Shown: positions 1,974 to 63,630 of the stretch, one piece after another
How the letters are laid out: every line of letters begins with the position of its first letter
Numbering within the stretch: the stretch's first letter is position 1
Assembly: GCA_964503755.1 (NCBI GenBank)
Contig: CAZDBO010000002.1
Coordinates: forward strand, 261 to 64,260
DNA: 64,000 nucleotides
Direction: 5' to 3'
DNA from: an uncultured Candidatus Saccharibacteria bacterium
GTDB taxonomy: Bacteria > Patescibacteriota > Dojkabacteria > JAOAGR01
The notes under the pieces: model-generated
The model's database searches: none
What the model was told of the DNA's origin: nothing
The model's input: the letters and a program-made list of their open reading frames with translations, nothing else
Made by a program: the position numbers and the translations under genes

Positions 1974-4900
1974 ATGAAATTCAAAAACGTAAACACAAAA
2001 AATTTTGACTATCTAATAGCCCTAGATTTGGCCATTACATCAGTGGGTTAGGCGGTGATAGAGATAGACTAAGAAAACGCTGACGATGAAAAATATGATG
2101 TAAAAGGATTGATAGATGTGGGAGTGAGAGTCTGGGATAGTATTGAAGATGAGAAAGGCAATTTACCATTACACAAAAGAAGAGAAGCCAGAAGTCTCAG
2201 ACGAATAATAGACAGAAGGCAAAAAAGACTTAGAAAAATCAAAAATATTTTTATCTAGAACTATCCTAATGTATTTAAAGATAATGAATATTTTGAATCG
2301 CAAGAATATCTATCTACAGATCCCTACGTTGCAACAGTGAAAGGATTGGATGAGGCCTTGACTTTATCAGAGTTAGCTAGGGCAATATTGCACCTTGCAA
2401 AACGAAGAGGATTTAAGTCCAATGCTAAAGACGCTAAAAAATCTGAAGAGAGTAAAAGTGAAACCGGTTATAAAAGTGGCATACAAAAAACAGAAGAAAA
2501 ACTTTTGAGCGGTAATTATCGTACTATCGGAGAGATGCTTCTAAAAGATGAAATGTTTTCTGAACGAAAAAGAAATGAAGGTGAAAACTATATCTTTGGT
2601 GCAAAAAGAGAGATGATTTTGCAAGAGCTAAAAATGATTTTAGATAAACAGGTTGAACTTGGTGTAATAAATCGTGAAGTTGCAGATTAGCTCCATGGTA
2701 CGGTTGAATATCAAAGACCGTTTGCTACTTCAGAAAACATCAAAAAATTAGTAGGATACTGTGAAATATTTAAGGACGAACTTAGAGCACCTAAGTATGC
2801 TCCTAGTGTAGAATTTAGGTCTTTATGGGAAAAAATAAATAATTTAACATGGTAAGACAAAAGAGGCGATAAGTGGGAAAGCGGATATTTGACAGATGAT
2901 TTGAGGTAGAAATTGTTTTAGCTTGCTTTAGAAAAAAAGGAAATTACTTATTATGACATTAGAACAAGGGTATTAGGATTAAGTGACGAATATGAAATTT
3001 TCTTTAAATCATGTACATATTTTGATAAGGTAAAAAGCTCTAAAAAGAGTAAAAGCAAGAAATCAGAAGGCGAGTCACAAGTTGAAGTCGGACAAGAAAC
3101 TATACAAAATGATAAAGCGAAAAAATCAGAAGAAGATCAAGAACGATTGATACGTATACCCACAAAAAAGCTGAAAGTAGAAAATTTTTGCTCTGAAAGG
3201 ATATCATTTGTTAAAAAGTGTGAATTGCCAGAGAATAAATTTAGTTCACTTTTTGCTGAGCTTGATAAATATGATACTGCAGACAAATTGGTGGAGATAA
3301 TGAATTATTCATATACTGATGATGAACTCAAGCAGAATCTTGCTAATGCGGGTTTGGATGAATATTTTGAATATCTCAAAGAAATATATGCTGATTTTTC
3401 GGGTACTTCAAATCTAAGTATCAAAGCATGTAGAGAAATGTTACCTCTACTTAGGGATCAGGCACTCAAGTATAGTGAGGCAGTAGCACACATTAGATTA
3501 AACAATCCCCAAGAGGCAGGATCAAGATATGATCAATTGCCAGAGGTGGCATATGATGATATTCGTAACCCAGTAGTCCATAGAGTCATTGCACAAACAA
3601 AAAAAGTCATCAACGCACTTATTCAGAGATATGGAAGACCGAGTTTGATTCATATCGAACTTGCTAGAGAGATGAAATTACCAAAAGATAAACGAAGAAA
3701 ATTATCTATCCAAAATCGTGATCGTGAAAGTAAGAATAAATAAATCCAAGCAGAACTGGAGAGATTGGGTATACAAGTCAACGGTACAAACATTACAAAA
3801 TTTAAACTCTGGAAAGAATAGGATCACAAATGTGCCTATTCAGGACGTGAGATCACAGTTGATGATTTCATTGCGAGTACTGAGATAGATGATATTCTGC
3901 CATTTAGTCGCAGTCTTGATGACAGTATAAACAACAAATTACTGGTTTTTGCCCAAGAGAATCAGAACAAACGTGATAGAATACCTTTTGAATATTTTGG
4001 TCATGATACTGAGAGATGGGAACGTATGAAATAGATCTGGATGAATGTAATGAAACTTCATCCATCAAAACTTGCTAGGTTATTGACTGAAAGCTACACA
4101 CAAAGAGATCTAAATTCATTTTTACAAAGAGATTCAAATGATACTAAATATGCCTCTAGATTTATCAAAAATTATTTAGAAAACAATCTGCTATTTAAAG
4201 AAAGTAAAAAACTCAAAAGACGTGTTTATACCTTCCAAGGTTTGCTTACAAGTCTTCTTAGAAAAAGTTATGGACTAACAAGGATAGAGAAGAAAGTCTC
4301 AGACATCACGCCTTGGATGCGGTAGTGGCGGGTGTAGCAAATCAAAAAATGCTGATGAAATTTTGTGAATGGTATAAAATCAAAGAAAATAGACAGAAAG
4401 TATTGGATAAAAGCGTTGATCCCGAATCTATCAAATTTGCTCCTGAGCCATGGACAGATTTTAGAGATGATGTAAATATACGAATATTTAGGGATAATCC
4501 CGTTGAAGAACTTAGAGAAAAAGGAATATTGGATAAACATACGGTAAAGAATATACTAGATTTATACGTCCGCTTTTTGTCTCTAGGATGGCCAAATACA
4601 AGATTACTGGTGCTATACATGCAGAGACAATCAAGTCTATCTGTGAGATTAATGGAAAAGAGTACTTTATAAAAACGATTAGTATTACAGATCTAAAAAA
4701 ATCTAATTTTGAAAAAGATCTCAATTCAAAAGATCTAGAAGGTATGATCATCGCTGATCCTGAGACTATTAGGGTGCTTAGGGAGAGGCTAGAGGAATGT
4801 AATTGGGATATCAAGAAAGCATTTGAAGAGCCTATATACAAACCATCACGAAATTCAGAACGTAAAAATAGAATAAAAAGAATAAAAGTCGTGGACGGTC

Positions 4901-5374
4901 CAGCGGTAACTTATGTAACACTCAAAAGAGGTAAAGGGAAAGGTTATGCTGATAATCGTAGTATGGTACGTGTAGATATATTTAGAAAAAATGGTAAATA
5001 TTACTCAGTACCAGTATACGCTAGTTGGATAGAACGCTATGATCTACCTATACAATATACACCACTGAAAAATAAAAAACACGTTGATGATACACTTGAA
5101 TTTTGTTTTAGTCTGTATCCAAGGGAGTTAGTATATTTGAGTGATGGAGAATATAGTGAATATGTTTACTATGTTAGTATGAACTCTTCAACTGCAGGTG
5201 ATTATGTTTTTGTAACCGATGATTTAGGTAGATATACAAAAAATAAATTTTTAAATAATGATATACGTAGGGTTGGATATATACTTAAAAGCATTACCAC
5301 ATTAAACTATTTAAAAAAGAAATATGTTGACGTTTTAGGCTTTATCCATGATATTAAAAAATCGAGCGTAAGCC
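1974..5374 (+). pseudogene. cas9: type II-C cas9 pseudogene (Nme/Cje-like Cas9, about 1130 codons)
   Basis: All hallmark Cas9 segments are present in order: RuvC-I (1974-2048, ending LDLAITSVG at the TAG), the Arg-rich bridge helix, REC segments matching Nme Cas9, the IRNPVVHRVIAQTKKVINALIQRYGRPSLIHIELARE motif, the HNH domain and the C-terminal PAM-interacting domain. Frame 0 is kept from 1974 to about 4280 despite in-frame stops at 2049 TAG, 2070 TAA, 2256 TAG, 2691 TAG, 2853 TAA, 2907 TAG, 2919 TAG, 3741 TAA, 3819 TAG and 4032 TAG. Frameshifts follow near 4280 (frame 0 to 2) and near 4575 (frame 2 to 1). The HNH catalytic His is replaced by Asp. Confidence 0.8.
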
Positions 5375-6199
5375 ATTATTTTAGTGATTATGGGAAATTA
5401 AATATCAAAGATAAAAGACTTGTTTATACAAAAGACGATAAAGAGATAATAGATATACCAATCGATGATATATCCGCTATAGTGATAGAAAGTAGACAGA
5501 TGATTTTGACGTCTTATCCAATATCTATTGTGCTAGTCATGATATTTTGATCATATTCTGCGATGAAAAACATCTATCAAATGCGATAGCTATACCATTT
5601 CAAAGTTTTGGTCGCCAAAGACTCAGAGTAGAGAAGCAGATTTCTTTATCTTTACCATTCAAACAACAGTTATGGGCACGTATAGTCAGACAAAAGATTA
5701 TTAATCAGGCAAAATTATTAGATAAACTAAATACCGAAACATCAAAACAACTTTATGCTCTGGCCGATGATATCAAGTCTGGTGACAGTGATAATAAAGA
5801 AGGATTAGCATCTAAAATATATTTTAGGTCTTTGTTTGGCAAAAATTTTCTAGAGAAGATGATTCGCATGCGGTCAATAGTCTTTTAAATTATGCGTATA
5901 GTATAGTCAGAGGTTCTATCAGTCGTACTTTGGTGGCTCATGGTTTTATACCATCTTTAGGTATTTTTCATAAGAATCAATATAACAATTTTAACCTTAG
6001 TGAGGATCTGATAGAGCCGTATAGACCTATTATTGATAGTTATGTGATAGATTTATTGAATAAAGGGATGAATAATATCCAAAGTAAAGAAGTAAAATTT
6101 GAATTATTGAAAATATTCGAATGCAGAGTATTATATAGTGATAAAAAAGTTAATATAAAACAAAGTATTGATATATTGTGGATACACTTGTTATGAGTA
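5375..6199 (+). pseudogene. cas1: cas1 pseudogene (type II Cas1, two frameshifts)
   Basis: The N-terminus is read in frame 1, fused to the cas9 frame with no intervening stop. The IIFCDEKHL...NKEGLASKIYFRSLFGKNF segment is in frame 0 (5547-5888). The LNYAYSIVRGSISRTLVAHGFIPSLGIFHKNQYNNFNLSEDLIEPYRPIID segment is in frame 2 (5885-6199). Shifts sit near 5545, next to a duplicated-looking atgatattttgatcatatt, and near 5882 at a TTTT run. Confidence 0.7.
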
Positions 6200-6285
6200 T
6201 CAATGGGCAAGATCCCAAAATACTTTTATTACTAGAGTTGATATTCCTATAAAGCTCTATATTATAATTTTTGTAGTTTTAATTT

Positions 6286-6606
6286 ATGAGTAAGTGTATG
6301 AGGATACTTGTTTTATTTGATTTGCCAGTTGTTACTAAAAAACAACGTAAGATATATGCTCGATTTAGAAAAGCACTTATCAAAGATGGTTATGATATGA
6401 TTCAGTTTTCGGTCTACCAGCGTATCTGTAATGGGCTAGATATGGCAGACAAATATATGCAACGACTCGAGGAGTATGCACCAAAAAGAGGTGCTATAAG
6501 AGCTATGATACTTACTGAAAGACAATTGAAGTATATGTGTGTTATTACTGGTAAGACAAAACCAAAAGAAAAATTGATCAGTGATAATCAATGTGCGTTA
6601 TTTTAA
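6286..6606 (+). CDS. cas2: CRISPR-associated endoribonuclease Cas2
   Basis: Intact 106-aa ORF. The MRILVLFDLPVVTKKQRKIYARFRKALIKDGYDMIQFSVYQRIC sequence matches the Cas2 N-terminal pattern; the true start may be the internal ATG giving MRIL at 6298. Confidence 0.8.
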   Translation: MSKCMRILVLFDLPVVTKKQRKIYARFRKALIKDGYDMIQFSVYQRICNGLDMADKYMQRLEEYAPKRGAIRAMILTERQLKYMCVITGKTKPKEKLISDNQCALF

Positions 6607-6659
6607 TCAAATTTTTGTTGAGTTTATAATGTGAATTTTCTTATTGGGACAAACAAAAA

Positions 6660-6682
6660 GTTGTGGTAGAGTTTACCACAAC
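6660..6682. other. perfect 9-bp inverted repeat GTTGTGGTA-gagtt-TACCACAAC, 54 nt downstream of cas2
   Basis: Seen in sequence. No U-tract follows, so it is not a canonical terminator. It is the only repeat-like element where a CRISPR array or tracrRNA would be expected. Confidence 0.3.
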
Positions 6683-6858
6683 TTGGGAGATATGGGAATA
6701 AAAATAGGATAGAGACCCATGGGTTAGCTTATGAGTCTGTAAAATTATATTATATAAATACAAATTTAACAGAAACCAGTAGACAAACACATTCTTTGAT
6801 TATATTTGTATTTATAGTACAATTATGGGTTAATAAAATTTTTGCATGTTGTATAAGA

Positions 6859-7440
6859 ATGTTTTATGCGAGATCAATTCAACCTTATAATACATTAAAA
6901 TCCGTGCATAGGTTCGAGGCGGCATATCGCTTGGATTCAAAAGATATAGATAGGGATTTGCTTAAAATAATAGAAAAAACTAATATCGAGTATTTAATCA
7001 AAAATGCCACAAAAAAGAAAATTCCAAAACCAGAATTTTTATATCACGGATCACCTGTCAGTGGAATAAAAGTTTTAAAGCCATCAAGTCGAACACGACC
7101 GGGTGTATTGAAAAATAAAGTTTTTCGAGCAGTGTATGCCACAGATATACTTAGCTATGCCTGTGCGTTTGGATTTCCATGGTCAAATGGTGAAGGGTTT
7201 GAACTTATTTTCACAAACGATAAAGTTGAGCTCGGCGTGCCAAAACAATACAAGGATAGGATACAAAAACCACTTTTCGTATATGTTGTCAAGGGAGAAT
7301 ATTTTGAATTATTACCAGAAGCTGCACCAAAAGGACATAATTATTTTTCAAAAACACCAGTACCTGTAGAAAGAGTAACAAAATACAAAAGTGTAAAAGA
7401 TGCCCTACTAAAATTCGAATGTAAAATTTATTTCATTTAG
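6859..7440 (+). CDS. hypothetical protein with LYHGS motif; possible ADP-ribosyltransferase-fold (Tpt1/PARP-like) protein
   Basis: Track ORF 6796..7440, with a likely start at ATG 6859 (MFYARS). An EFLYHGSPVSG motif is followed by aromatic and acidic residues, as in H-Y-E ADP-ribosyltransferases and Tpt1/KptA. This is a weak, memory-based assignment. Confidence 0.3.
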   Translation: MFYARSIQPYNTLKSVHRFEAAYRLDSKDIDRDLLKIIEKTNIEYLIKNATKKKIPKPEFLYHGSPVSGIKVLKPSSRTRPGVLKNKVFRAVYATDILSYACAFGFPWSNGEGFELIFTNDKVELGVPKQYKDRIQKPLFVYVVKGEYFELLPEAAPKGHNYFSKTPVPVERVTKYKSVKDALLKFECKIYFI

Positions 7441-14469: not shown

Positions 14470-16775
14470 TATTATCATCTTCAGTTTGTACTGGGGTTGT
14501 GATTATTGTGTTGGTAGGTGTCATATCTCTATCTTCTGCATTTTCTGTAGGTGTGGATGTAGGTGTCTGAGTGATTTCTATATTTTACGTTGGTGTTGGA
14601 GTAAGAGTAACTGTTGGAGTAGGTGTGTTGGTACCTATACTATTTGCAATAATTTTAACCGAAGCTATTGCTACATCACCATCAGAATCTATTACTTTTC
14701 CAATACATATATATTCACCAGTATTTGGTATGTTTATATTGTTAGATGTAAATGTAGTAGATGTATTATTATTTGATGTTCCAGCACATGTTCCACTAAA
14801 TGCATAATTGTATGTGCATTACCAGATATTGTTTGAGAGATGACTATTCTGAATGCTGTATTAATATCTATATACACTATGCCATCCATATTCGATGCAG
14901 GAGATAAAGCATATAAAACAATTAGAGGATTAGTGTCATTTGTTGGTGTTGGAGTTGGTTTTGGAGTCGGAGTTAAGGCTGGACTTGGAGTTGGAGTTGA
15001 AGTTGGTGATGGCATAGTATTGATTACTATGTTTTTATTTCCGCCAAGCGAATTTGCACTACCAGAATTTGGTAATGTTAGTATCGCGTTATTTAGTACT
15101 GAATCTTTTATGCTACCACCAGCGAGAGATAAAACATGTACATTTGTATAATCTAAATCTGCAGTATTATCTCCTGATGCTATTGTATATGTAAATGTCA
15201 AAGTATTGCTACCAGAACCAGAAGAATATGTTGCACTACCTCCACTGTTTAAGGTTAGTGTAGGTGTATCTGTTACGTTTACATTTTCGTTAAATACAAC
15301 TTAAATTGATATTGTAGCTCCAACTTCGTATGTACCATTAGTAGCTGATGATGTGACATTTGTTATTATTGGAGTACAATCTAGAGTATCTCCGTTTATT
15401 GTCCAATTATTTGGTGCATTTATTAAAGTGTTTCTAGCTGCTACAGCATTACATGACATATCAGCGACATTACTTATATCCCAAGACCCTATATTTTGAT
15501 TAAAAGATGTGGCATCAGAAAACATTAAATACATATCGTTAACATTACTAGTGTCCCAAGAACTGGTTGGTTGATTAAAAGATATGGCTCCATCAAACAT
15601 AAAGCTCATATTCGTCACACTAGATGTATCCCATGATCCAATTGGCTGATTAAACGATGTAGCATCCTCAAACATACTATTCATATCTGTAACATTACTA
15701 GTATTCCAAGAACCGATTGGTTGGTTAAAAAAAGTTGCACCCGCAAACATACCTATCATGACAGTTACATTACTAGTATTCCAGGAACCAATATTCTGAT
15801 TAAATGACACTGCACTTTACTTTGAAACATCCATGCCATATTATTAACACTACTAGTGTTCCAAGACCCTATTGGCTGATTAAAAGATATGGCTCCCGCA
15901 AACATACCAGACATATTAGTAGCATTACTGGTATCCCAAGATACTAATGGCTGATTAAATGACAGTGCATTAATAAACATACCGGACATATGAGTTACAC
16001 TACTAGTGTCCCAAGATCCAATTGGTTGATTAAAGGATAGTGCACCAGAAAACATGTCAGACATATCAGTAACATTGCTAGTATCCCATCCACTAATATC
16101 TTGATTAAATGTTTGAGCATTTTTAAACATGTCAGCCATATCAGTTACTTACTAGTATCTCAATTGCCAATATCCTGATTGAAATTTGAAGCATTCATGT
16201 AAACCCCAGTCATATCATTGATATTTGTTGTGTCCCATGAATTCATTGCAGCATTAGTTGTCAAAGAAGTTGCTACATAAAACATTTGATACATATTTGT
16301 AACATTAGACAAGTTAGGTACATCTGTAGCATTCAACTCCACATTTTCGCATCCGGGAAAAGCTCTTGACATACTCTCCCAAGCTATAGATGATCCCCAT
16401 TGATCAATAGATAATAGTTTTAACCTGTCACCTGCATTGTTGAAGAATATTCTTGGAAACGTTCCAGTTATCCATATCTGATAAGTTCCAGGTGATGAAT
16501 AAGTGCATGTTACATTGCCGGTTTGATTTACATGTTCATTTGTACTATCACCATCAGTCTACATTGTAGCTGTATCCTCCACCTGCTGTGGTAGGTATAG
16601 TAAACTGGTTATTAGCACTGGCACCTGGATTATCTGTTCGAACCGTGATCTTGAATGCATTTGGATTTGCCTATGCTACATTTTCACCACTGTGAAAGTA
16701 AAATATGGCTGATAAACCGATGAATGATAAAATAAAAAGGATCAGCTTAAAATTAAAATTGATCTTAGATATATA
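14470..16775 (-). pseudogene. DUF285 (PARCEL / Mycoplasma-type repeat) surface protein, fragmented
   Basis: About 9 tandem ~26-aa repeats of the form [25 protein letters not shown] appear across ORFs 15301..15810, 15765..16139 and 16160..16372, which lie in three frames. ORF 14734..15201 (same gene, further downstream) carries a Thr/Pro linker TPTPSPALTPTPKPTPTPT. A signal-peptide-like N-terminus near 16770 lacks an ATG, and in-frame stops occur in the 16380-16700 part. Confidence 0.6.
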
Positions 16776-16858
16776 CTATAGTAGCACTATTTTGTTTAAA
16801 ATCAAGATGTGTAGTTCTTAAATTTGTAAATACGCTAAATATTCATATAATAAATTAT

Positions 16859-17866
16859 ATGCATACAAAAGTGATTAAGATTAATCCTAGCAACATAAGA
16901 AAAGATTTAATTCGATACGCAGCTAAAATAATACAAAGAGGTGGTTTAGTAGTTTTTCCTACAGAGACGGTTTATGGATTAGGTGCAAATGCATTGGATG
17001 CAAGTGCTGTGATGAAAATCTTCAAAGCAAAGAATAGGCCGTCTGATAATCCTTTGATCATTCATATTGCTGGTATCGAACAATTGTATAAATTAGCAAA
17101 AAATGTTCATAAAGATGTTGAGAATTTAGTTAATGTTTTCTGGCCAGGACCTTTGACTGTAGTTTTGAATAAAAAAGAAATAGTACCAGATGAAACTACC
17201 GGATTTACGGATACGGTAGCCATCAGGATGCCAAAACATCCAATTGCATTAGAATTAATCAAGCAATCTGGAGTTTGGGTTGCCGCACCATCTGCAAATT
17301 TATCTGGTCGTCCGTCTCCTACGAAAGCGTCACATGTTATTGAGGATTTGGATGCTAAGGTGGATATCATAATAGATGGTGGAGAGTGTGAGGTAGGTTT
17401 GGAATCAACAGTCATTGATATGAGATCAAAACCCTATACTATTTTGAGACCTGGAGGTATTAGTTTTGAACAGATAAATCGAGTATTATCAGATGTAAGA
17501 TTGTTTTCTTCTCATAAGATTGAATCTCAAGTCGTATCACCAGGTATGAAATATAGACACTATGCACCCGAGGCAGAGTTGATTTTGGCTGATAATGTGA
17601 TGCCTTTAATAGAAAAATATAAAATTTTAGATAAAAAAGTTGGGGTATTAGCCACAGATGAAACTAAAAGTCTTTATCAAGACAAAGCAGATGTACTAAT
17701 AAGCGTAGGAACTAGAAATGATTTAATTACAGTTGCAAGAAATATTTTTGATGCGTTGAGGGAATTTGATCATCAAGGTGTAGATGTAGTAATTTCTGAA
17801 ATCTTTCCAGAAGAGGGGATAGGTAGGGCTATTATGAATAGGCTAAGAAAAGCGGCAATGAAATGA
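16859..17866 (+). CDS. tsaC: L-threonylcarbamoyladenylate synthase (Sua5/YrdC/TsaC, long form with Sua5 C-domain)
   Basis: YrdC-domain motifs VVFPTETVYGLGANAL and KIFKAKNRPSDNPLIIH, with a roughly 120-aa C-terminal extension. Confidence 0.8.
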   Translation: MHTKVIKINPSNIRKDLIRYAAKIIQRGGLVVFPTETVYGLGANALDASAVMKIFKAKNRPSDNPLIIHIAGIEQLYKLAKNVHKDVENLVNVFWPGPLTVVLNKKEIVPDETTGFTDTVAIRMPKHPIALELIKQSGVWVAAPSANLSGRPSPTKASHVIEDLDAKVDIIIDGGECEVGLESTVIDMRSKPYTILRPGGISFEQINRVLSDVRLFSSHKIESQVVSPGMKYRHYAPEAELILADNVMPLIEKYKILDKKVGVLATDETKSLYQDKADVLISVGTRNDLITVARNIFDALREFDHQGVDVVISEIFPEEGIGRAIMNRLRKAAMK

Positions 17867-17951
17867 AATATTTTCTTAATAATCTTTTTTAAAGTTCTAA
17901 TGGAAAATATAGTAAAAAATCAGAAATTTCTACTAATCGGCGGCGTAGCAA

Positions 17952-18570
17952 GTGACTGTATTGATGTTTAATTTCTTTTCAAATAGAAATGAAAATCAGG
18001 CTTCGACACAAAATACGAATACAGAAAATCAAAGTTTTTCTAATCAAAATAGTAATCAGCAAATTGATACTGATGTAGATTATCCCACTGTTACTAGTCA
18101 AAACACAAACCAAAATAAAGTTTATTTAAAAGTAAAAATAAATGGTGAAGAATGGAATGGTATAGTACAGTATGGAGGCTCTCAGTACTATCCAAATGCA
18201 AATAAAATACTTGGAGTTGATTCACCTTATTTACAGTTAGCTTTTGCTGAAGCCAGTGGACTGGGATAAGTCTGAGAGTATATTGATATCAATAAAAGAT
18301 TTCAAGCCAGGAATAGGCAAATATTATGGTATTATGGAGCTTTTGTATTCAAGCAAGGATTTTACGAGAGGATATCAGGATGATTTGCCTGCACAGAAAA
18401 CGGATTTTACTCTCGAAATAACAAAATGGGAAGAAAAAATCTCAAATACTGTTATTGTGTCTGCTAAGTTTGGTGGTACTTTAAAGGGAATATTTGGCTC
18501 TAGTGATGTGAATGTAGAAAATGGAGAAATTGTTGATTTACCTCTCGAGATCGTTTATGAAAATCAATAG
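17952..18570 (+). pseudogene. N/Q-rich protein with conserved ~150-aa C-terminal domain (paralog A), interrupted by a +1 shift at about 18258
   Basis: ORFs 17952..18269 and 18244..18570 overlap in different frames. The joined product aligns with paralog B (19234..19940) across YLQLAF...DWDKSE...FTLEITKWEEK...SAKFGGTLKG. Confidence 0.4.
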
Positions 18571-18585
18571 ATTATTGCAATTTAT

Positions 18586-19128
18586 TTAATTTGCTTCTAG
18601 TATTATCCATTTGTTTGAAAATTTTTTACTTTCAGTATCTTCTTTGTACTTTTCAAACCACGTTTTAGTTCTTTCTTCTATTGTTTCTACTGGATCAATG
18701 TGACCTTCGTTTTTTGCTCTTTGTTTTTGACGTTTTATGGATTCTGAAATGTCAATATCGATCCATATGCCTAAAAATTCTATATCATATTCGCTACATA
18801 AATTTTCATAGTGCTTTCTATCAACATGTCTCCCAAGAGTTGCTGTAGCAATAGTAATATTGTTTTTATTTAAAGATTCGTTTATTTTGCTATGAAATAC
18901 CTTCCATTTATAGAATGGCCATTCTTCATCAGTTCCACCCATGCTCAGAAATAGTTCTTTTTCATTTTTATCATCTATATCAATGTGTATTATCTTCAAA
19001 TTTGTATTATGGACAAATTCAGTAATTTTTCGGGCTAATGTAGTCTTACCCGCACCGGGAGCACCACCGATTAGTATGAGAATATTTTTGGATGTTGTGT
19101 TTAATGTGTTGAAAACTTTTTCTAAGAC
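18586..19128 (-). CDS. P-loop NTPase (Walker A ILILIGGAPGAGKTTLARKI); kinase/AAA-like, family not resolved
   Basis: The open frame extends from 19128 to 18586. The Walker A motif is encoded at about 19040-19075. There is no ATG/GTG/TTG upstream of the Walker A (the first is TTG at 18999), so the start is unusual or the 5' end is damaged. Confidence 0.5.
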   Translation of the reverse strand, partial: VLEKVFNTLNTTSKNILILIGGAPGAGKTTLARKITEFVHNTNLKIIHIDIDDKNEKELFLSMGGTDEEWPFYKWKVFHSKINESLNKNNITIATATLGRHVDRKHYENLCSEYDIEFLGIWIDIDISESIKRQKQRAKNEGHIDPVETIEERTKTWFEKYKEDTESKKFSNKWIILEAN

Positions 19129-19233
19129 TTATTTTTCAGACACGGTATATATTCTAATATTACATCAAAATATAGCATATATTTGGGTAAATTAATTGAT
19201 TTTGACAGTTAATAAAATTTTTTGTATTAAATT

Positions 19234-19940
19234 TTGTGTGTGTCTAATTCTTTACCACCTATAAAGGAAACTACAATAGATTTAAAAATGTTGTTGATTA
19301 CAGCGACATTTTTCTTTATAGTAATTGTTGGAATCGGTTTGTTTTTCATCCTATTTAATAATATTTTCAAAAATAATGAAAATATTAGGGTTTCAACTAA
19401 TAATCAGAATAATAATCAGACTACCGATAATAATAGAAATAATGATGATAATAGATTGCCTATATTCGAAGAAGATTCAGCTGTTAATGATAATGAAGAT
19501 GAACCTCAATCTATTAATAACAACAATAACGATAAGAAAGATTTCTACTTAAGAGCGATAGTTAATTGTCAGGAGTGGAAAGCAACAGTAGGTATGAAAT
19601 CCGTTAAGTTTTATAAAAATGGTAGTGAATTTTTAAGGACTAATGAACCTTATTTGGAGATTGTATTTGGTGGAATTGATAAAAATGTAGGACCATCGGT
19701 AATGACTATGAAAATTAGTTCATTTAACCAGAATTGGGAACATATAAAGGCAATCTATATATTACAATTGTTGGAAATAATCAGACAAACATTTATGATT
19801 ATAAAACACATACTGGATTTAATTTAGAGATTACAAAGTGGAAAGAGCAAAATAACAACACAATCATTATGTCAGCTAAATTTTCTGGTACCGTAAAGGG
19901 CACAGTGGGAGCATTTACGGATATTACTTTTACGGATTGA
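19234..19940 (+). pseudogene. N/Q-rich membrane-anchored protein (paralog B of 17952..18570), interrupted by a -1 shift at about 19745
   Basis: An N-terminal transmembrane helix is followed by an N/D/Q-rich low-complexity region and then the conserved domain YLEIVFGG...NWEHIK | GNLYITIV...FNLEITKWKEQ...SAKFSGTVKG, split over ORFs 19234..19827 and 19734..19940. Confidence 0.4.
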
Positions 19941-20100
19941 GAGATTATTGAGTTGCCGGTGGAAGTGGCTGAGGAGTAAAGTAATCTTATTAGCTTGTTT
20001 TTAGTGTCTACAAGAAAATAATAGATAATTTGATTAGTTTTTGTCCTTCGAGTTTGTGATTACTTTGAAATTATTAGTTTTAATATTATCAAAATTCTTC

Positions 20101-20829
20101 TTATTTTTTGGATTTTCTAACAAATTCGCGAAACAAATCATAGACTAATACATCATCTTGCGCCTCAATATGCCCCTGAAACCCAATACAAAAATAATCT
20201 TTATCTTCATGTTCGATTATTTCAGTGATATTGTCTGGAGTGGTACCAACTATTCGCATATTTTTACCCGAATTTTTGATAGATTGATGATGAGCGGATG
20301 TTATTTCTATCTCTTCAGTTTTGATAATTTCAAATACTTTAGAATCTCTTTTTACAAATACTTTATGACTAAAATCTGGTTTAAATAAATCATCATAGTC
20401 ATCAGCTCCATGTTTTAGAGAGCTGATAGCCGGCACATGTTGATAAAGCTCTCCTCCGTTTGCGACAGCAAGCACTTGTGCACCTCTACATATCCCAAGT
20501 ATTGGGATTTTCTGAGCTATTGCTTGTTTTACCAGTTTAATCTCAAAATCATCTCGTCTGGACTCTTTTATTTCGGTTTTTTCGTGTTTTGCTTGATTAT
20601 AAAATTTTGGATCTATATCACTACCGCCGGTTAGTAGTATTCCATCAGCATAGTCAAGTACCATATTTATGATGTCTTCATTATCAATTGATGGAATTAT
20701 GATAGGTATTCCCCCAGCTTCGATAATTTTATTTATATAAGTTTCGCGTACCATATGTACAAATACCTGTGATTCGGGTTTGAGTTTAGTTTGAGCTGTT
20801 GGGATGTAGATTTTTGGATTTTTTGACAT
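20101..20829 (-). CDS. class I glutamine amidotransferase-like hydrolase (peptidase C26 / gamma-glutamyl hydrolase PuuD-like)
   Basis: The GICRGAQVLAVANGGEL nucleophile elbow with a downstream HH...E is typical of C26/GATase1 enzymes. Confidence 0.6.
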   Translation of the reverse strand: MSKNPKIYIPTAQTKLKPESQVFVHMVRETYINKIIEAGGIPIIIPSIDNEDIINMVLDYADGILLTGGSDIDPKFYNQAKHEKTEIKESRRDDFEIKLVKQAIAQKIPILGICRGAQVLAVANGGELYQHVPAISSLKHGADDYDDLFKPDFSHKVFVKRDSKVFEIIKTEEIEITSAHHQSIKNSGKNMRIVGTTPDNITEIIEHEDKDYFCIGFQGHIEAQDDVLVYDLFREFVRKSKK

Positions 20830-20909
20830 ATTGGATTATTTTATCAGATTAAAAATTTAGTTTCACAATTAAGATTTGTATGTTAAAAAATTAATTCATT
20901 ATAATAATC

Positions 20910-21716
20910 GTGATGAAAAATCTAAAAAATTTTAGAGTTAATAAACAATTCATATATTCTGTAATTCGCTTTTTTGCCAATGAACGTAATAGAAGATTCG
21001 TAATGTTAGCATGGCGTTTTAGATCAAGGATGGGGATATTGGCTGTTATTTTGCTACTTATTTTTTTATGTATTGTTTGTCTATGCTGTTTTACTTTTTT
21101 TTCACTGTTAGTTCAATCTGGTAGCGTAATTCAGAGAGAATTAGAAAATGTCAATAATACAATTAACACGACCCAGGAAAGTGTTTCCCAAGATAACAAT
21201 AGTAATGAAAATGACAACAAAAGTCAAAGTGAAAACAATAGTCAAGTCAATTCTAATGAATCAGAAAAAACAACAGATGCTTTAACAAATTCTAATCCAA
21301 CAGTTGCAGTAAATAGCCAAAATATTCAACTTTCAGATGCTTATGTCGTAAAAGTAGTAGATGGTGATACTATCGATGTAATAATAAACAACGAAACTAA
21401 AAGAGTCAGATATATTGGCGTAAATACACCTGAGAGAGAGAAATGTTTTTTTGAAGAGGCAAAGAATTTTAATTCAAATTTGGTATTAAACAAAAAGGTA
21501 AAACTAGAAAAAGATGTGAGTGAAACGGATAGATATGGACGGTTATTGCGGTATGTATATTTGGAAGATGGAACTATGGTAAATGAAAAACTTGTAGCCG
21601 AAGGTTATGCTCAGGTCAATACTTTTCCTCCTGATGTAAAGTATCAGGATAGGTTCTTAGAGGTTCAGAAAAAAGCAAGAGATGAGGATAGGGGATTATG
21701 GAGTAGATGTAGGTAA
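20910..21716 (+). CDS. membrane-anchored thermonuclease (SNase-like) family nuclease
   Basis: An N-terminal transmembrane helix and a N/S-rich linker precede YVVKVVDGDTIDV...RVRYIGVNTPE...DRYGRLLRYVY, which is staphylococcal-nuclease-like. Confidence 0.65.
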   Translation: MMKNLKNFRVNKQFIYSVIRFFANERNRRFVMLAWRFRSRMGILAVILLLIFLCIVCLCCFTFFSLLVQSGSVIQRELENVNNTINTTQESVSQDNNSNENDNKSQSENNSQVNSNESEKTTDALTNSNPTVAVNSQNIQLSDAYVVKVVDGDTIDVIINNETKRVRYIGVNTPEREKCFFEEAKNFNSNLVLNKKVKLEKDVSETDRYGRLLRYVYLEDGTMVNEKLVAEGYAQVNTFPPDVKYQDRFLEVQKKARDEDRGLWSRCR

Positions 21717-21718
21717 AT

Positions 21719-22480
21719 TTAAATATTACTAAAGCTTCTGCCGCTGTTTATGTTATATCTTTGTCCTGTGATTGATTTAGATTCTATAAATAATTCAACA
21801 ATTCGTGCAACCTCATAGCAACTAGTTAAACCAAACGGTATACGCGATATGACGTCTGGTCTTTCTTCTTTTGTTTTTACACCCATAGAAGTATCTAAAA
21901 GTCCAGGTCGAATTACATTAGCCCGAAATGCACATTTGTTTTCTATTCCAAATCTAGCAAAAGATTGGATCATATGTTCACTTGCTCGTTTTGCCATACC
22001 ATATGCCATTTCATTTGGTGCCGCCCCCTCACAACTAACACTGCTAATATACGTTATAGAACGATACGGATTTGGATTCTTAATCCATTCTTGAATTAGA
22101 TATCGAGATATGATAAACGAACTTAGGGTGTTTTGTTCAACAGATTCTAGTATTTCTTCTCTTGATAAATTACATAGATCCTTTGAGAACATAATACCGT
22201 GGCACAGAACTAGATGATCATAGTTTATTGGATTTCCTAGTTTTTCTTTTAAGATTTCTAAATCGACACTTGACAAATCTAAATTATGATGAGTATATGA
22301 ACTATTATGAACCTTAGACCATATAAAAAGATCTTTTATGTTTTTTTTAGTTCTTGATATACCAATAATTTTATATCTAGTAAGAAGGTGTTTTGTTATA
22401 ACTTTTCCAAGTCCTCCATTTGAACCCGTTATAATTATAGTACCTTTGGGGCTAATTGATTTTTTGTTCGAATCTTGCAT
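21719..22480 (-). CDS. short-chain dehydrogenase/reductase (SDR)
   Basis: IIITGSNGGLGKVI forms a TGxxxGxG Rossmann motif, with a downstream Y...K in YGMAKRA. Confidence 0.7.
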   Translation of the reverse strand: MQDSNKKSISPKGTIIITGSNGGLGKVITKHLLTRYKIIGISRTKKNIKDLFIWSKVHNSSYTHHNLDLSSVDLEILKEKLGNPINYDHLVLCHGIMFSKDLCNLSREEILESVEQNTLSSFIISRYLIQEWIKNPNPYRSITYISSVSCEGAAPNEMAYGMAKRASEHMIQSFARFGIENKCAFRANVIRPGLLDTSMGVKTKEERPDVISRIPFGLTSCYEVARIVELFIESKSITGQRYNINSGRSFSNI

Positions 22481-56267: not shown

Positions 56268-56882
56268 ATGTATCCAAATAGTACAACAAGTTACGGTTAT
56301 TCATCATATTCATCCACTTCACCTACAAATTATACCAATTCAAAAGATAGTAATTTACAAAGTAATAATACAAACAATTATGGCACATCAACCACAAATA
56401 CTGGCGGGGAAAGCCGCGAAGAAATGATAAAAAGATTGTATCGTACAATCCTAGGACGTGATCCTGATGCTAATGGACTCAATTATTTCCTTACAAATAC
56501 TTATTTGACGGAGAGTCAGATAGCTAAGATGATATATGAATCTACCGAACATGTCGAGATATTAAAAAGAGCAAAAGATGTTAATGCAATGATAATAAAA
56601 CTTGATTCTGCAATAAGAGATCTTACTATTGCCCAGAATAAAGTACAACAACTTGAAGCTTTGCTAGAAAAATACAAAAAATTTTTCAATAACCAATACG
56701 GTAAAGATAATACCACTTATGATCCTTTATCAGATAATTATAGTTATTCAAATGATGACGCTAACTCTCAAGATACAACAGAAAACCAACAGCATGTTTA
56801 TATAACTGATCCTTTTGTCGAAGAAGAAAAACCTCAAAAGGGTATAAGAGGTATATTTCAGAAGCTTTTTGGATTTGATTAA
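56268..56882 (+). CDS. DUF4214-domain protein with N-terminal S/T/N-rich region
   Basis: LYRTILGRDPDANGLNYFL matches the DUF4214 core. Confidence 0.45.
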   Translation: MYPNSTTSYGYSSYSSTSPTNYTNSKDSNLQSNNTNNYGTSTTNTGGESREEMIKRLYRTILGRDPDANGLNYFLTNTYLTESQIAKMIYESTEHVEILKRAKDVNAMIIKLDSAIRDLTIAQNKVQQLEALLEKYKKFFNNQYGKDNTTYDPLSDNYSYSNDDANSQDTTENQQHVYITDPFVEEEKPQKGIRGIFQKLFGFD

Positions 56883-57039
56883 TTATAATTATTTTTATCG
56901 TTAATATAGTATCCAAAATGAAAAAGTTTATTTTAGCGTTGATAATTCTTATAATAAAAAAACAAAAACAATATTCTGTCATGCCTTTAAATTTTCTAGT
57001 GATTCTTGAACTTCTCAGATTTAGAAATTGTTTATACAA

Positions 57040-58725
57040 TCATTTTTTTATAATTTCGATAAGTTGAACCGACGAATTAATATATTCTAAGTTTTGAGTA
57101 AGTCGCATTTTTTTATTCAAAACCAGTCTTATATAACCATAATCTACACCAATTGCTGGCATCTCTTCAAAATATCTAGTCAAAAATTTTTTATAATAAT
57201 CTTTTTGAATATTGAGATCTTCCGAAAATCTGCTTTCTACAATTAATAAATCTGTGGTACTCGTTCCAAAAGCTGCAATATTTAAGCCAGGATAATTGAT
57301 AAAATTAGTATGCCAATGAGTGTATAAATCATCACTTACCTTATAGGGAAAGATAATAGCTTCAAAATTACGATTTCTAATTAGATTATCATAATCTTGC
57401 GATGTTTTTACATCTGGTATGACCTTAATACCTAGTTTTAAACTATTTTTTTCTATTATTTCAAATATAGATTTGTATCTTGGATCATCAAGTAATACCA
57501 ATCGGTAAGAAAGTTCTATAGCATCTTTTTCATATATACCACTATTATTTTTTATAAATTTAAGTTTAGCTAAATCATCTTCTAATGTTTTTAAATCATA
57601 ATCAATTATATTATTTTTATACAATTCATCATAAAATGTAGATTCTTTTGAAATTGGGAGTATTTCTATATTTTCTTTCTGTTCGAATATTTGCTTTGCA
57701 AGTAATGATAAATAACTTCTCCTAATAACGACATTCTCACTAAAAAAACTATCAGAATTTCTTAAATTAAAATAGATTCCAAATAAATTTGACGTCAAAT
57801 AAATATCTTTAGTATATAACTCACTAAATTTCTCGCTATATGAAATATTAATATCTCTAAAAACATCAATATTGGCTAGTCGTAAATCTAATGTTAGTTT
57901 TTCACTATCACGATAGATTTTTATCCAGTATTCATTTGGCAAGTCATTATTATGCCAATATCTCGGATTTTTTCTTAGTCTTATTTCATCATTTGTTTTC
58001 TGTTCAATAAAGTATTTTCCTGCTGTAACGGGAAAAAATCCAAAATCAGAAGTACTAAGCTGTACAAGGTTATTAAATAAATAATTTTCTAATTTATGTG
58101 CTGGCAAAATAGGAAATACAAGTTTTTCAATCAAAAATGGATTAGGCTTGCTAGTATTATTCTCAGCAACTAAATCTATCGTAAATGTGTATTTATCATT
58201 TTCAGTAATCGTGATAGCTCCATTATTTATATTTTCAATAAATGGAGTACGACTTGATAACTGTTTAATAGCACTTATGGTAGAAGCAATATCACGCGAA
58301 GTTATCTCTTTACCATCACTCCATTTCAAATTACTTTTTATTTTGATTTGATAAGTCTGATTTGACAATTTTTGATAACTTTGTGCTATATCTTCCTTCA
58401 AATTTCCGTTTAAATCAAAATAAAATAAAGTAGGAAATAATAAATAATTTAAGTTTTGTCGCATATTCAAAACCTCGTCTGGATAATCATCTGTAAGTAA
58501 AGGATCAACACTAAAAAGAACTTCATTCTCGACAAAAAGAGTCGGTATCAATACCCCTTCTATAACTCTATCTACTTTTGGTAATAGAAAATAATCCCTT
58601 GCAGCAAAAAATAAAACTGTTCCTATCGATAAAATTAACAGATTTATTAAAAAAACATATAAAAAAGAGTAGACAAAATTAAATTTCTTTTTGAATACAG
58701 AAAAACATCTATTTACAAGATCCAT
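57040..58725 (-). CDS. ABC transporter substrate-binding protein, family 5 (peptide/nickel type), membrane-anchored
   Basis: N-terminal transmembrane helix, and FPVTAGKYFIEQKTNDEIRLRKNPRYWHNN resembles the SBP_bac_5 GPY...NPxYW region. Confidence 0.55.
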   Translation of the reverse strand: MDLVNRCFSVFKKKFNFVYSFLYVFLINLLILSIGTVLFFAARDYFLLPKVDRVIEGVLIPTLFVENEVLFSVDPLLTDDYPDEVLNMRQNLNYLLFPTLFYFDLNGNLKEDIAQSYQKLSNQTYQIKIKSNLKWSDGKEITSRDIASTISAIKQLSSRTPFIENINNGAITITENDKYTFTIDLVAENNTSKPNPFLIEKLVFPILPAHKLENYLFNNLVQLSTSDFGFFPVTAGKYFIEQKTNDEIRLRKNPRYWHNNDLPNEYWIKIYRDSEKLTLDLRLANIDVFRDINISYSEKFSELYTKDIYLTSNLFGIYFNLRNSDSFFSENVVIRRSYLSLLAKQIFEQKENIEILPISKESTFYDELYKNNIIDYDLKTLEDDLAKLKFIKNNSGIYEKDAIELSYRLVLLDDPRYKSIFEIIEKNSLKLGIKVIPDVKTSQDYDNLIRNRNFEAIIFPYKVSDDLYTHWHTNFINYPGLNIAAFGTSTTDLLIVESRFSEDLNIQKDYYKKFLTRYFEEMPAIGVDYGYIRLVLNKKMRLTQNLEYINSSVQLIEIIKK

Positions 58726-58746
58726 TCTTTAATTAGATAAATTGTT

Positions 58747-61806: not shown

Positions 61807-62344
61807 AATAGTAAAAATTTATTTTCTCGAAAATACTCAATACAGATAATCATACACAATTCAGTAAACTAGACAAATCTATAATATTGAAAATTTTAAA
61901 TAATCGTGTCACTCGATTTTGAAAATAAGGAATGATTTAATAATTTGTTTAATAAATAATAATAAAATCTCTAAAATTTAACAAATATTGGTTTCATCTT
62001 TATTTCAATTATTATTTTTTATTATCTTATTCTGCTTAACATATTTCTTTCTTCCAACTAACTATGTTGTTGTTTTGTTTTATATTGCACAGATATATAT
62101 CATTTAACTCAACAATATATATAATAATATATTTAACTTTAACTTTAATTTATAATAAAATGTATTCGTTCAATGTATCTAAATCATTTAGACATAAGTT
62201 TAATTTAAAAATTTTATGTCCTTTAGAATTGATAATATTACTATCGAAACTCCATATACACCAAATATCAGTAAAATTACTATTGACCGATTAAGTTTGA
62301 ATGCATTATTATATTATTGTTGAAAGCACCAATTAAAAATTTTA

Positions 62345-63630
62345 TTAGGTGATCAATCATCAAATACTGCAGGGCTATTACGTAAGAGAGTACTTGAAGC
62401 TATCGGAACATTGCTACATTTATTAACAACTGCTGACTACCGTGACCTTTCGCTTTTAGATATAACAACAAAAATTGGTGCTAAAATGGACTTAAATGGA
62501 AATTATATTATATATGATGCTGAAAATCCAATGTTATGGATGGATGAAGAAATAGGAATATAAAATTCGAAAGATATGATACTTTATATGCATCATGATG
62601 CTGATAGACCTCATATTATTCAAAATTATGATGGCCATCCTGTTTTGTGGGAACAAAATGGTATATTAAGCAAGATCGATGAATGGCATCTTGGAAAAGG
62701 TCCTTTAGATTATTTTTCTACTGCTGGTAGATATCCTTTTTCAACATATGGTTTTATTGAAATTAATAATACAGAATAAATTTCGTATATTAGTGCATTT
62801 GGTGAATTCATAAATGCACCTCCAGGAATAATAGCTCTGGTCGGTCCGAAGGATCAGAATGAGAATGAACAACCCACATTTATTACACTAAGAAACGATC
62901 AAACCAATTACAAAGCAGCCACCGAATTAACACAACAAATAGTATTAGCAGAAATAAACTCGGCCTCAACTGTAGCTGATCTAATAGGTAACACAAATGA
63001 TATAGCAGCTCACGCTATAAGAAGAGCAATTACAGATTCGTTACAATATCGACATATCGGCGATTATTCTCAAGTTATAGACCTTTTAACAGGAGGAGTG
63101 CTACCATTCAGTACTGTTAGTTCACTATTCGCTGAAAGAATACCTGTAATCCTAGAAAAAATTCATACTCAAGGTAAACAGATTAATAATACATCAAAAT
63201 ATTTCTGACGTATAAATCTCACATCAGACAAACGTACTAAATTACATGATAAAGACAGTTTAAACGATCAGGAGAGATACATGATCGTACCAGCTGGTAA
63301 AACTTTAATATCAGATTTTCAGCACGTGGACAAGTTGTGGCATTTTCACGAATGCCGTATGCAGAAAATGTTGTAAAAATACTTAATAAATTACTTGGTA
63401 GAATACCTATGCCAGTAATTCAGATAACATTCAATATGGAATTTCCAGAAAACTTAAATCGCGCACTCAGAGAAAAGTGGAGAGAATTTGCAAGTTCAGT
63501 AGCAATACCAAGTAGTTTAGAATATGAATACGTTGAAAGAATAATAAGGGCATGGAATACAAAACCTACACCTATATTTGCTAGTATAACTCGATTTCCA
63601 ATAAATGTAATAATTCGTTTTGTGATTTAG
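62345..63630 (+). pseudogene. unknown ~430-codon gene with three in-frame stops and one frameshift
   Basis: A single frame is readable from 62345 through TAA at 62560, TAA at 62777 and TGA at 63206 to 63376. It then shifts to the frame of ORF 63337..63630. The region is less AT-rich than its surroundings. Confidence 0.35.

Follow-up and report, generated by a model that had tools for sequence, protein, structure and literature searches.

A three-gene accessory cluster with probable recent pseudogenisation in a Dojkabacteria-like genome

Results

Organization of the locus

The region between positions 17900 and 19979 of the window, i.e., the whole stretch of 64,000 nt analysed here (approximately 30% G+C, standard bacterial code), contains the sequences of two paralogous genes on the plus strand, designated A and B, and between them a minus-strand gene for a P-loop NTPase. 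Each of the plus-strand genes is distributed over more than one reading frame. The features of the region are as follows.

17900-17950, plus strand: first piece of A (frame 2), with the ATG start, followed by the short cytoplasmic tail MENIVKNQK and by FLLIGGVA, the first half of the membrane anchor
17950-17951, plus strand: position at which 29 nt are missing from A, as shown by a three-way DNA alignment with contigs L014 and L003 and a pairwise alignment with contig L001
17951-18260, plus strand: second piece of A (frame 0), comprising a linker rich in N, Q and T and the N-terminal half of the beta domain, as far as ...YLQLAFAEASG
18241-18266, plus strand: interval in which one nucleotide has been inserted into A, with a change from frame 0 to frame 1; both orthologs are one base shorter here
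18262-18570, plus strand: third piece of A (frame 1), with the second half of the beta domain, ending at the TAG 18568-18570
18586-19143, minus strand: gene of an AAA_33-type P-loop kinase-like NTPase, a putative pseudogene, with a GTG start at 19141-19143 and an in-frame TAA at 19129-19131 (codon 5)
19288-19737, plus strand: first piece of B (frame 1), with the ATG start, the anchor MLLITATFFFIVIVGIGLFFILF, a linker rich in N and D and the N-terminal half of the beta domain, as far as ...SSFNQNW
19573, plus strand: polymorphic site in B, GAG (Glu) in the window and TAG (stop) in contig L015
19586, plus strand: polymorphic site in B, ACA in the window and AAA in contig L015 (Thr to Lys)
19735-19739, plus strand: site at which B has lost one nucleotide and changes from frame 1 to frame 0
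19737-19979, plus strand: second piece of B (frame 0), which covers the remainder of the beta domain, is interrupted by an in-frame TGA (19938-19940) and terminates at the TAA 19977-19979

The locus in related genomes

Intact A orthologs of 219-237 amino acids, each encoded in a single frame, are present in three contigs that are syntenic with the window, namely L001, L003 (from the MAG Ca. Dojkabacteria SKW36) and L014. The order of the genes in these relatives is Sua5, A ortholog, AAA_33 NTPase, Peptidase_C26, SNase and epimerase, and the proteins flanking the locus share 70-91% identity between the window and the related contigs. On the basis of this synteny and of the identity values of the flanking proteins, the window therefore comes from a related Dojkabacteria-like organism of the CPR (Patescibacteria). 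The closest homologs of A are the proteins P0001 and P0006 (57-62% identity), which are again encoded in contigs syntenic with the window; the A orthologs are 58% identical to each other. A calculation of dN/dS was left out, as synonymous sites are saturated at approximately 60% amino acid identity. A search for other strains with the same flanking genes yielded one Logan sample only, and the papers listed by a literature search contained none of the three SRA run accessions concerned.

Pieces and lesions of A

As judged from a six-frame translation of positions 17880-20010, A is open in frame 0 from 17952 to 18269 and then in frame 1 from 18244 to 18570. The initial annotation had assigned positions 17952-18570 to this gene. 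The TAG at 18568-18570 is indeed its end, but its start lies further upstream in the third frame, at the ATG 17900, where the translation MENIVKNQKFLLIGGVA matches the N-termini of the orthologs; the corresponding sequences of the intact proteins are MENIIKNQKVLLIVG in L003 and MENIIKNQKILLIGG in P0006. The 29-nt deletion behind this first piece removes approximately ten codons of the membrane helix and changes the frame from 2 to 0, thus adding a second frameshift to the gene. A restart of translation at the GTG 17952 would produce a protein without a hydrophobic anchor, with a mean Kyte-Doolittle value of -0.4 versus 2.3 for the frame-corrected sequence. The second piece was recovered by tblastn with 100% identity over positions 17952-18260. 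The previously recognized shift of A from frame 0 to frame 1 is confirmed and confined to positions 18241-18266 by a frame-1 stop at 18238-18240 and a frame-0 stop at 18267-18269. Most simply, the sequence would be explained by an expansion of GG to GGG in CTGGGAT (18261-18267) or by an extra C at 18261. A further deviation of A is an Ala where at least 90% of the family members have a Gly (YPNAN versus YPNGN).

Pieces, lesions and polymorphism of B

B is open in frame 1 up to position 19827 and in frame 0 from 19728 to 19940; a TTG at 19234 is a possible alternative start. Homology to the family ends in frame 1 with FNQNW and resumes in frame 0 with GTYKG. The Gly of this G-K/T-Y motif is conserved, and four residues separate it from a conserved Phe in the other members, so the TGGGA of B probably derives from TGG GGA (Trp-Gly) by the shortening of a G4 run to G3. 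The frameshift claimed before for B is therefore present, yet it coincides with the Trp codon and the G-run itself instead of following the Trp by four codons. The end of the gene, formerly set at 19940, has to be moved, since the homology to A continues past the TGA for 12 more codons (GEIVDLPLEIV in A, versus EIIELPVEVA directly behind the stop in B) and leads to the TAA at 19977-19979. The TGA itself occupies the position of a Gly that is invariant in the family (11 of the 11 aligned members).

No ortholog or closer relative of B was retrieved from 5.8 billion proteins (with a query that included words from B itself), from the genome contigs or from the metagenome contigs. In L014, the place of B is taken by approximately 900 nt without an ORF, which retain a weak syntenic remnant of the 5' part of B (70% identity over 123 nt, E = 6e-5), located in low-complexity AT-rich sequence; in L001 and L003, only a gap of approximately 370 nt is left. 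As judged from these contigs, B seems to be dispensable in the relatives.

Relatedness of A and B

After correction of the frames, A and B are recognized as paralogs by BLASTP (34% identity over 149 amino acids, E = 2e-25), and the alignment runs continuously across both shift points. Three features that had been proposed for the pair are thereby substantiated: the paralogy, the N/Q-rich character, which corresponds to an N/Q/D-rich low-complexity linker in both proteins, and a shared C-terminal domain of about 150 amino acids without a match in Pfam or NCBIfam. A search of the window by tblastn revealed no further copies of the family.

The assumption that both genes are frameshifted at the same conserved Trp has to be abandoned. 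The Trp of A (in DWD), next to which the placement of a base is ambiguous, lies in a variable loop where the orthologs read RGKEKPES, and other members carry Lys or Pro in this column of the pairwise and family alignments. The Trp of B (in NQNW) is found approximately 20 columns after that of A, at a position occupied by Leu, Ile, Thr or Lys in other members. The two residues thus neither align with each other nor are they conserved, and those Trp residues that the family does conserve lie elsewhere, in the motifs EEW and ITKW. The two shifts are separated by about 20 alignment columns, and the chance of two random lesions falling this close together in a protein of approximately 220 columns is estimated at roughly 0.2, which removes the apparently unusual coincidence.

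The NTPase gene

The NTPase is characterized by the Walker A motif GGAPGAGKTT and a match to Pfam AAA_33 (PF13671) with 40.3 bits (cutoff 27). Its open frame on the minus strand (18586-19128) indeed contains no ATG, GTG or TTG between the upstream stop and Walker A, as had been stated in the initial annotation, but the GTG used by the orthologs is still present at 19141-19143. The apparent lack of a start is explained by the TAA in codon 5, which reads GAA in L014 and GAT in L003. The orthologs in these two contigs are intact, comprise 188 (L014) and 187 (L003) amino acids and share 65% identity with the NTPase of the window. Genes for the NTPase next to an A homolog were only found in Dojkabacteria contigs, and the loci from Verrucomicrobiae and Lacihabitans have unrelated neighbours. 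The Walker A motif, the AAA_33 match and the expected length of the orthologs (approximately 187 amino acids) are shared with the AAA_33, Zeta-toxin-like and APS-kinase-like small P-loop kinases, from which the NTPase of the window differs by its putative inactivation through the stop at codon 5.

The beta-domain family

A profile search of 5.8 billion proteins recovered seven homologs, all of them single ORFs of 201-298 amino acids with an N-terminal helix or lipobox, including two with lipoprotein-like LxGAGC N-termini. When 1.84 billion representatives were searched exhaustively with an HMM, the family was extended to 104 clusters (E up to 0.001), which show two architectures of about 200 and 300 amino acids with the domain always at the C-terminus. 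Members occur in genomes of Dojkabacteria, Verrucomicrobiae and Cytophagales-type Bacteroidota. The AlphaFold model of full-length P0001 consists of a helix (residues 2-27), a disordered linker (residues 28-66) and the beta domain; the domain modelled alone, with an alignment of 75 sequences, is all-beta with nine long antiparallel strands (pLDDT 93, pTM 0.88). Apart from Pfam and NCBIfam, the sequence profiles of the PDB did not contain a match to the domain of about 150 amino acids either, and a comparison of the model with the PDB by Foldseek returned GFP-like and nitrobindin barrels as top matches, the best with E = 0.07 and a TM-score of 0.16.

A and B would accordingly once have encoded single-pass signal-anchored membrane proteins, in which an N-terminal helix is followed by a disordered linker rich in N, Q and D and by an all-beta domain of some 150 amino acids; this domain would have been displayed outside the cell by means of a signal or lipid anchor. 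A function of this domain as binding or adhesion module is the best guess, made with low confidence. Small size, an N-terminal anchor or lipobox and a C-terminal all-beta domain are features shared with uncharacterised secreted proteins or lipoproteins of the DUF type, whose beta-domain families occur in Bacteroidota and other bacteria. One form, of about 300 amino acids, is extended by an additional N-terminal region, and ORFs of such families are present in the genomes of Lacihabitans and Leadbetterella. The domain of A and B differs in having no match in Pfam, NCBIfam or PDB sequences.

Reproduction of the lesions in a further assembly

The exact Sua5 protein of the window was found on the Logan contig L015 (SRR11582145), which corresponds to positions 15863-22349 of the window (6487 nt) without any gap and with two mismatches. 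L015 reproduces every indel and both stop codons of A, B and the NTPase. Both mismatches fall into B, for which a chance of about 0.013 was estimated, and the one at 19573 adds another nonsense codon to this gene. Note that a common origin of L015 and the window assembly in one sequencing run is conceivable, in which case both might share a systematic artefact of the reads at the two single-base indels.

Altogether, five disabling lesions of four kinds are distributed over the three adjacent genes, each of them recognized by comparison with two independent orthologs or with the family alignment. These five lesions fall within 2.1 kb, compared to none in the 30.4 kb of ORFs of at least 300 amino acids in the window, for which the rate of the cluster would predict approximately 73. 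The same ORFs contain 150 runs of at least three G or C, none of which is broken.

Other loci of the window

Elsewhere in the window, a type II-C-like Cas9 gene is present in at least seven pieces and a Cas1 gene in two frames, next to an intact Cas2 gene; no CRISPR array was found in the window. A second Logan contig reproduces the split of Cas1 and the 3' break of Cas9 and differs by a single intergenic indel of 4 nt. A gene for a surface protein with DUF285 repeats is divided into four pieces. The housekeeping genes in the window are intact.

A reading of TGA as Gly was rejected for this window: TGA terminates 10 of the 47 long ORFs, and the long ORFs are not merged when it is treated as a sense codon.

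Discussion

The region 17900-19979 is very probably a three-gene accessory cluster (A, NTPase and B) which has recently become pseudogenised in a Dojkabacteria-like genome of the CPR. The mutations required for this would be ordinary ones, i.e., point substitutions, one deletion and indels caused by strand slippage at short runs. In A, 29 nt of the membrane helix would have been deleted and a single base added at a short G-run; in B, a TGGGGA run would have been shortened by one G and an invariant Gly codon replaced by TGA; in the NTPase gene, the Glu/Asp codon at position 5 would have turned into TAA. The lesions may have become fixed because selection on the three genes was relaxed, of which several signs are apparent in the sequences: both differences between the assemblies, one of them a nonsense mutation, fall into B, B seems to be lost or degraded in the relatives, and A carries an Ala at a conserved Gly. 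The ancestral frames are otherwise free of stops, with about one in 12 random codons estimated to be a stop at this base composition. Since these frames are still open and A has not diverged further from its orthologs than these have from each other, the inactivation should be recent. Open ancestral frames would also be expected of genes that are in some way still used. A loss of function of A, B and the NTPase is what the combined lesions suggest, and low-level synthesis of protein pieces or re-initiation within A and B may still occur.

A different explanation, sequencing or assembly errors that produce miscalls at GGG runs in intact genes, had been raised from the outset. Both single-base indels can in fact be placed in a TGGGA pentamer (18262-18266 and 19735-19739), and the source of the window is probably a metagenome-assembled genome. 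Nevertheless, this explanation is very unlikely, because the 29-nt deletion and the substitutions to TAA and TGA are not homopolymer errors, the independent Logan assembly is free of gaps relative to the window over 6.5 kb, the 150 G/C runs of the long ORFs are unbroken, and the second Logan contig also reproduces the split of Cas1. As judged from these comparisons, the lesions appear to be real and not assembly noise. It is even harder to assume that the TGA of B is a sense codon according to code 25 (TGA = Gly), which is used in Gracilibacteria and Absconditabacteria. The idea has some appeal in an AT-rich CPR genome with a TGA exactly on a family-invariant Gly, but its probability is almost negligible: Sua5 ends at a TGA with the same length of 335 amino acids as its orthologs, and neither the frameshifts nor the TAA would be repaired by a change of the code.

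Programmed frameshifting (+1 in A and -1 in B), together with read-through of the TGA, might still produce and regulate full-length surface proteins. The ancestral frames are open on either side of the shifts, and a zero-frame TAA directly after the shift region of A is loosely reminiscent of +1 sites ending on a stop. Like prfB (+1), dnaX (-1) and the transposases of the IS3 family, A and B are split between two overlapping frames, but they differ from these systems by the lack of a slippery motif, of a stimulatory structure and of a conserved shift, and by their additional nonsense and deletion lesions. No slippery X XXY YYZ heptamer was detected in AGTGGACTGGGATAAG (18254-18269) or CAGAATTGGGAACAT (19729-19743), and the 80 nt downstream of each shift show no sign of a stimulatory RNA structure, their folding being no more stable than that of shuffled sequences (z = 0.19 and -0.03 against 200 shuffles). 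Moreover, the orthologs and all other retrieved family members are encoded in a single frame, two +1 events would be required in A and a -1 event combined with read-through in B, the neighbouring NTPase gene contains a plain nonsense codon, and B has an additional TAG in the sister assembly, all of which renders this form of recoding highly improbable. Phase variation, with the short G-runs acting as on/off contingency switches for a family of surface proteins, is an equally improbable cause. It would agree with the probable surface location of the products, with the position of both single-base indels at G-runs and with the presence of another broken surface-protein gene (DUF285) in the window, and the former two features are also typical of the phase-variable homopolymer genes for surface proteins in Neisseria, Haemophilus and Mycoplasma. 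Known contingency tracts are approximately 7 bases or longer. The tracts in A and B differ from those of the phase-variable genes in consisting of only 3 bases and having identical lengths in the window and in the sister assembly L015, and they are accompanied by a 29-nt deletion and nonsense codons which slippage cannot revert; tandem repeats are also missing from 17900-19980. Among the options formulated at the beginning, which included G-run errors and programmed frameshifting, parallel decay is thus the one favoured by the five lesions in three adjacent genes, by their recovery in an independent assembly and by the search for homologs in related genomes that had been suggested as a check, which found the A and NTPase orthologs intact and in one frame.

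Pseudogenisation of the cluster would correspond to the usual picture of bacterial pseudogenes, which includes several independent lesions of different kinds, intact orthologs, absence or degradation of the genes in sister lineages, neutral-looking polymorphism and damage of accessory genes next to intact housekeeping genes. Nothing essential differs from that picture, and only the host is unusual, with at least four decaying loci in a 64-kb window. A much more far-reaching proposal, which we regard as speculative and rather unlikely, is that the domain of A and B represents an undescribed extracytoplasmic beta fold for host attachment or ligand binding in CPR episymbionts, that A, B and the kinase formed one unit, and that their joint loss with Cas9/Cas1 and the DUF285 protein marks a recent change of host or lifestyle.

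For the annotation of this genome, positions 17900-19979 should very probably be recorded as three pseudogenes, rather than as five or six small hypothetical ORFs or as a recoding site. There are two by-products, neither of which should surprise a specialist. One is a small uncharacterised family of approximately 100 clusters that lacks a described relative and has an all-beta domain predicted with confidence. The other concerns the genomes of the CPR, which are generally described as streamlined: several accessory loci that appear to have been inactivated recently, coding for surface proteins, a kinase and a type II CRISPR-Cas system, are assembled within 64 kb and bear on the question of how CPR genomes shrink.

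Decayed and variable loci in the window

Over the 6.5 kb compared, the sequence of the window agreed almost completely with that of an independently assembled Logan contig (L015, from SRR11582145): only two differences were found, both of them located inside paralog B and only 13 nt apart (window 19573 and 19586, corresponding to L015 3711 and 3724). One of these two differences creates a TAG stop codon. A second Logan contig (L017) reproduces window 4137-7078 with a 4-nt intergenic indel around position 6251 as the sole difference. The following features of the window are considered here.

Features of the window (coordinates, strand, description)
2259-6606, +, decayed type II CRISPR-Cas locus
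3822-4034, +, HNH domain of Cas9
4035-4325, +, RuvC_III of Cas9
5496-5888 and 5828-6196, +, Cas1, split in two
6298-6606, +, Cas2, intact
14734-16558, -, repeat-rich surface-protein gene with DUF285 (PF03382)
21719-22480, -, short-chain dehydrogenase gene between SNase and epimerase
56761-58728, -, 562-codon ORF ending at TGA
62040-63630, +, row of short same-strand ORFs with in-frame stops and a single change of frame between them

The II-C-like Cas9 of the CRISPR-Cas locus is distributed over at least seven stop-free pieces (frames 0/0/1/0/0/2/1) and contains an in-frame TAG at 4032-4034; no CRISPR array was found within the window. The DUF285 gene consists of four pieces in frames 0, 0, 2, and 1, carries 75/150-nt tandem repeats at 15455-16195, and looks like a further accessory surface gene that has been pseudogenised. 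The short ORFs at 62040-63630, none of which had a Pfam match, may represent another decayed gene. The TGA of the 562-codon ORF is followed by 92 further stop-free codons in frame, but this continuation is probably due to chance, because the downstream piece appears to be of low complexity.

Comparison with related contigs

The short-chain dehydrogenase gene is missing at the SNase/epimerase position in all three syntenic relatives (L001, L003, and L014). One of these, L003 (MAG Ca. Dojkabacteria SKW36), contains a type I restriction-modification system between Sua5 and the ortholog of paralog A (L003 4129-5417, minus strand), an insert which the window lacks at the same place. The putative methylase-like (HsdM-type) gene of this system appears to be split into two overlapping ORFs.

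A Bacteroidota form of the family, i.e., of the proteins sharing the C-terminal all-beta domain of paralogs A and B, is encoded in Lacihabitans sp. CS3-21 (L006) and comprises about 300 aa, including an extra N-terminal region. Its position after two further ORFs on the same strand (756 and 300 aa) suggests that this region (L006 2435-6522) represents a surface-protein cluster.
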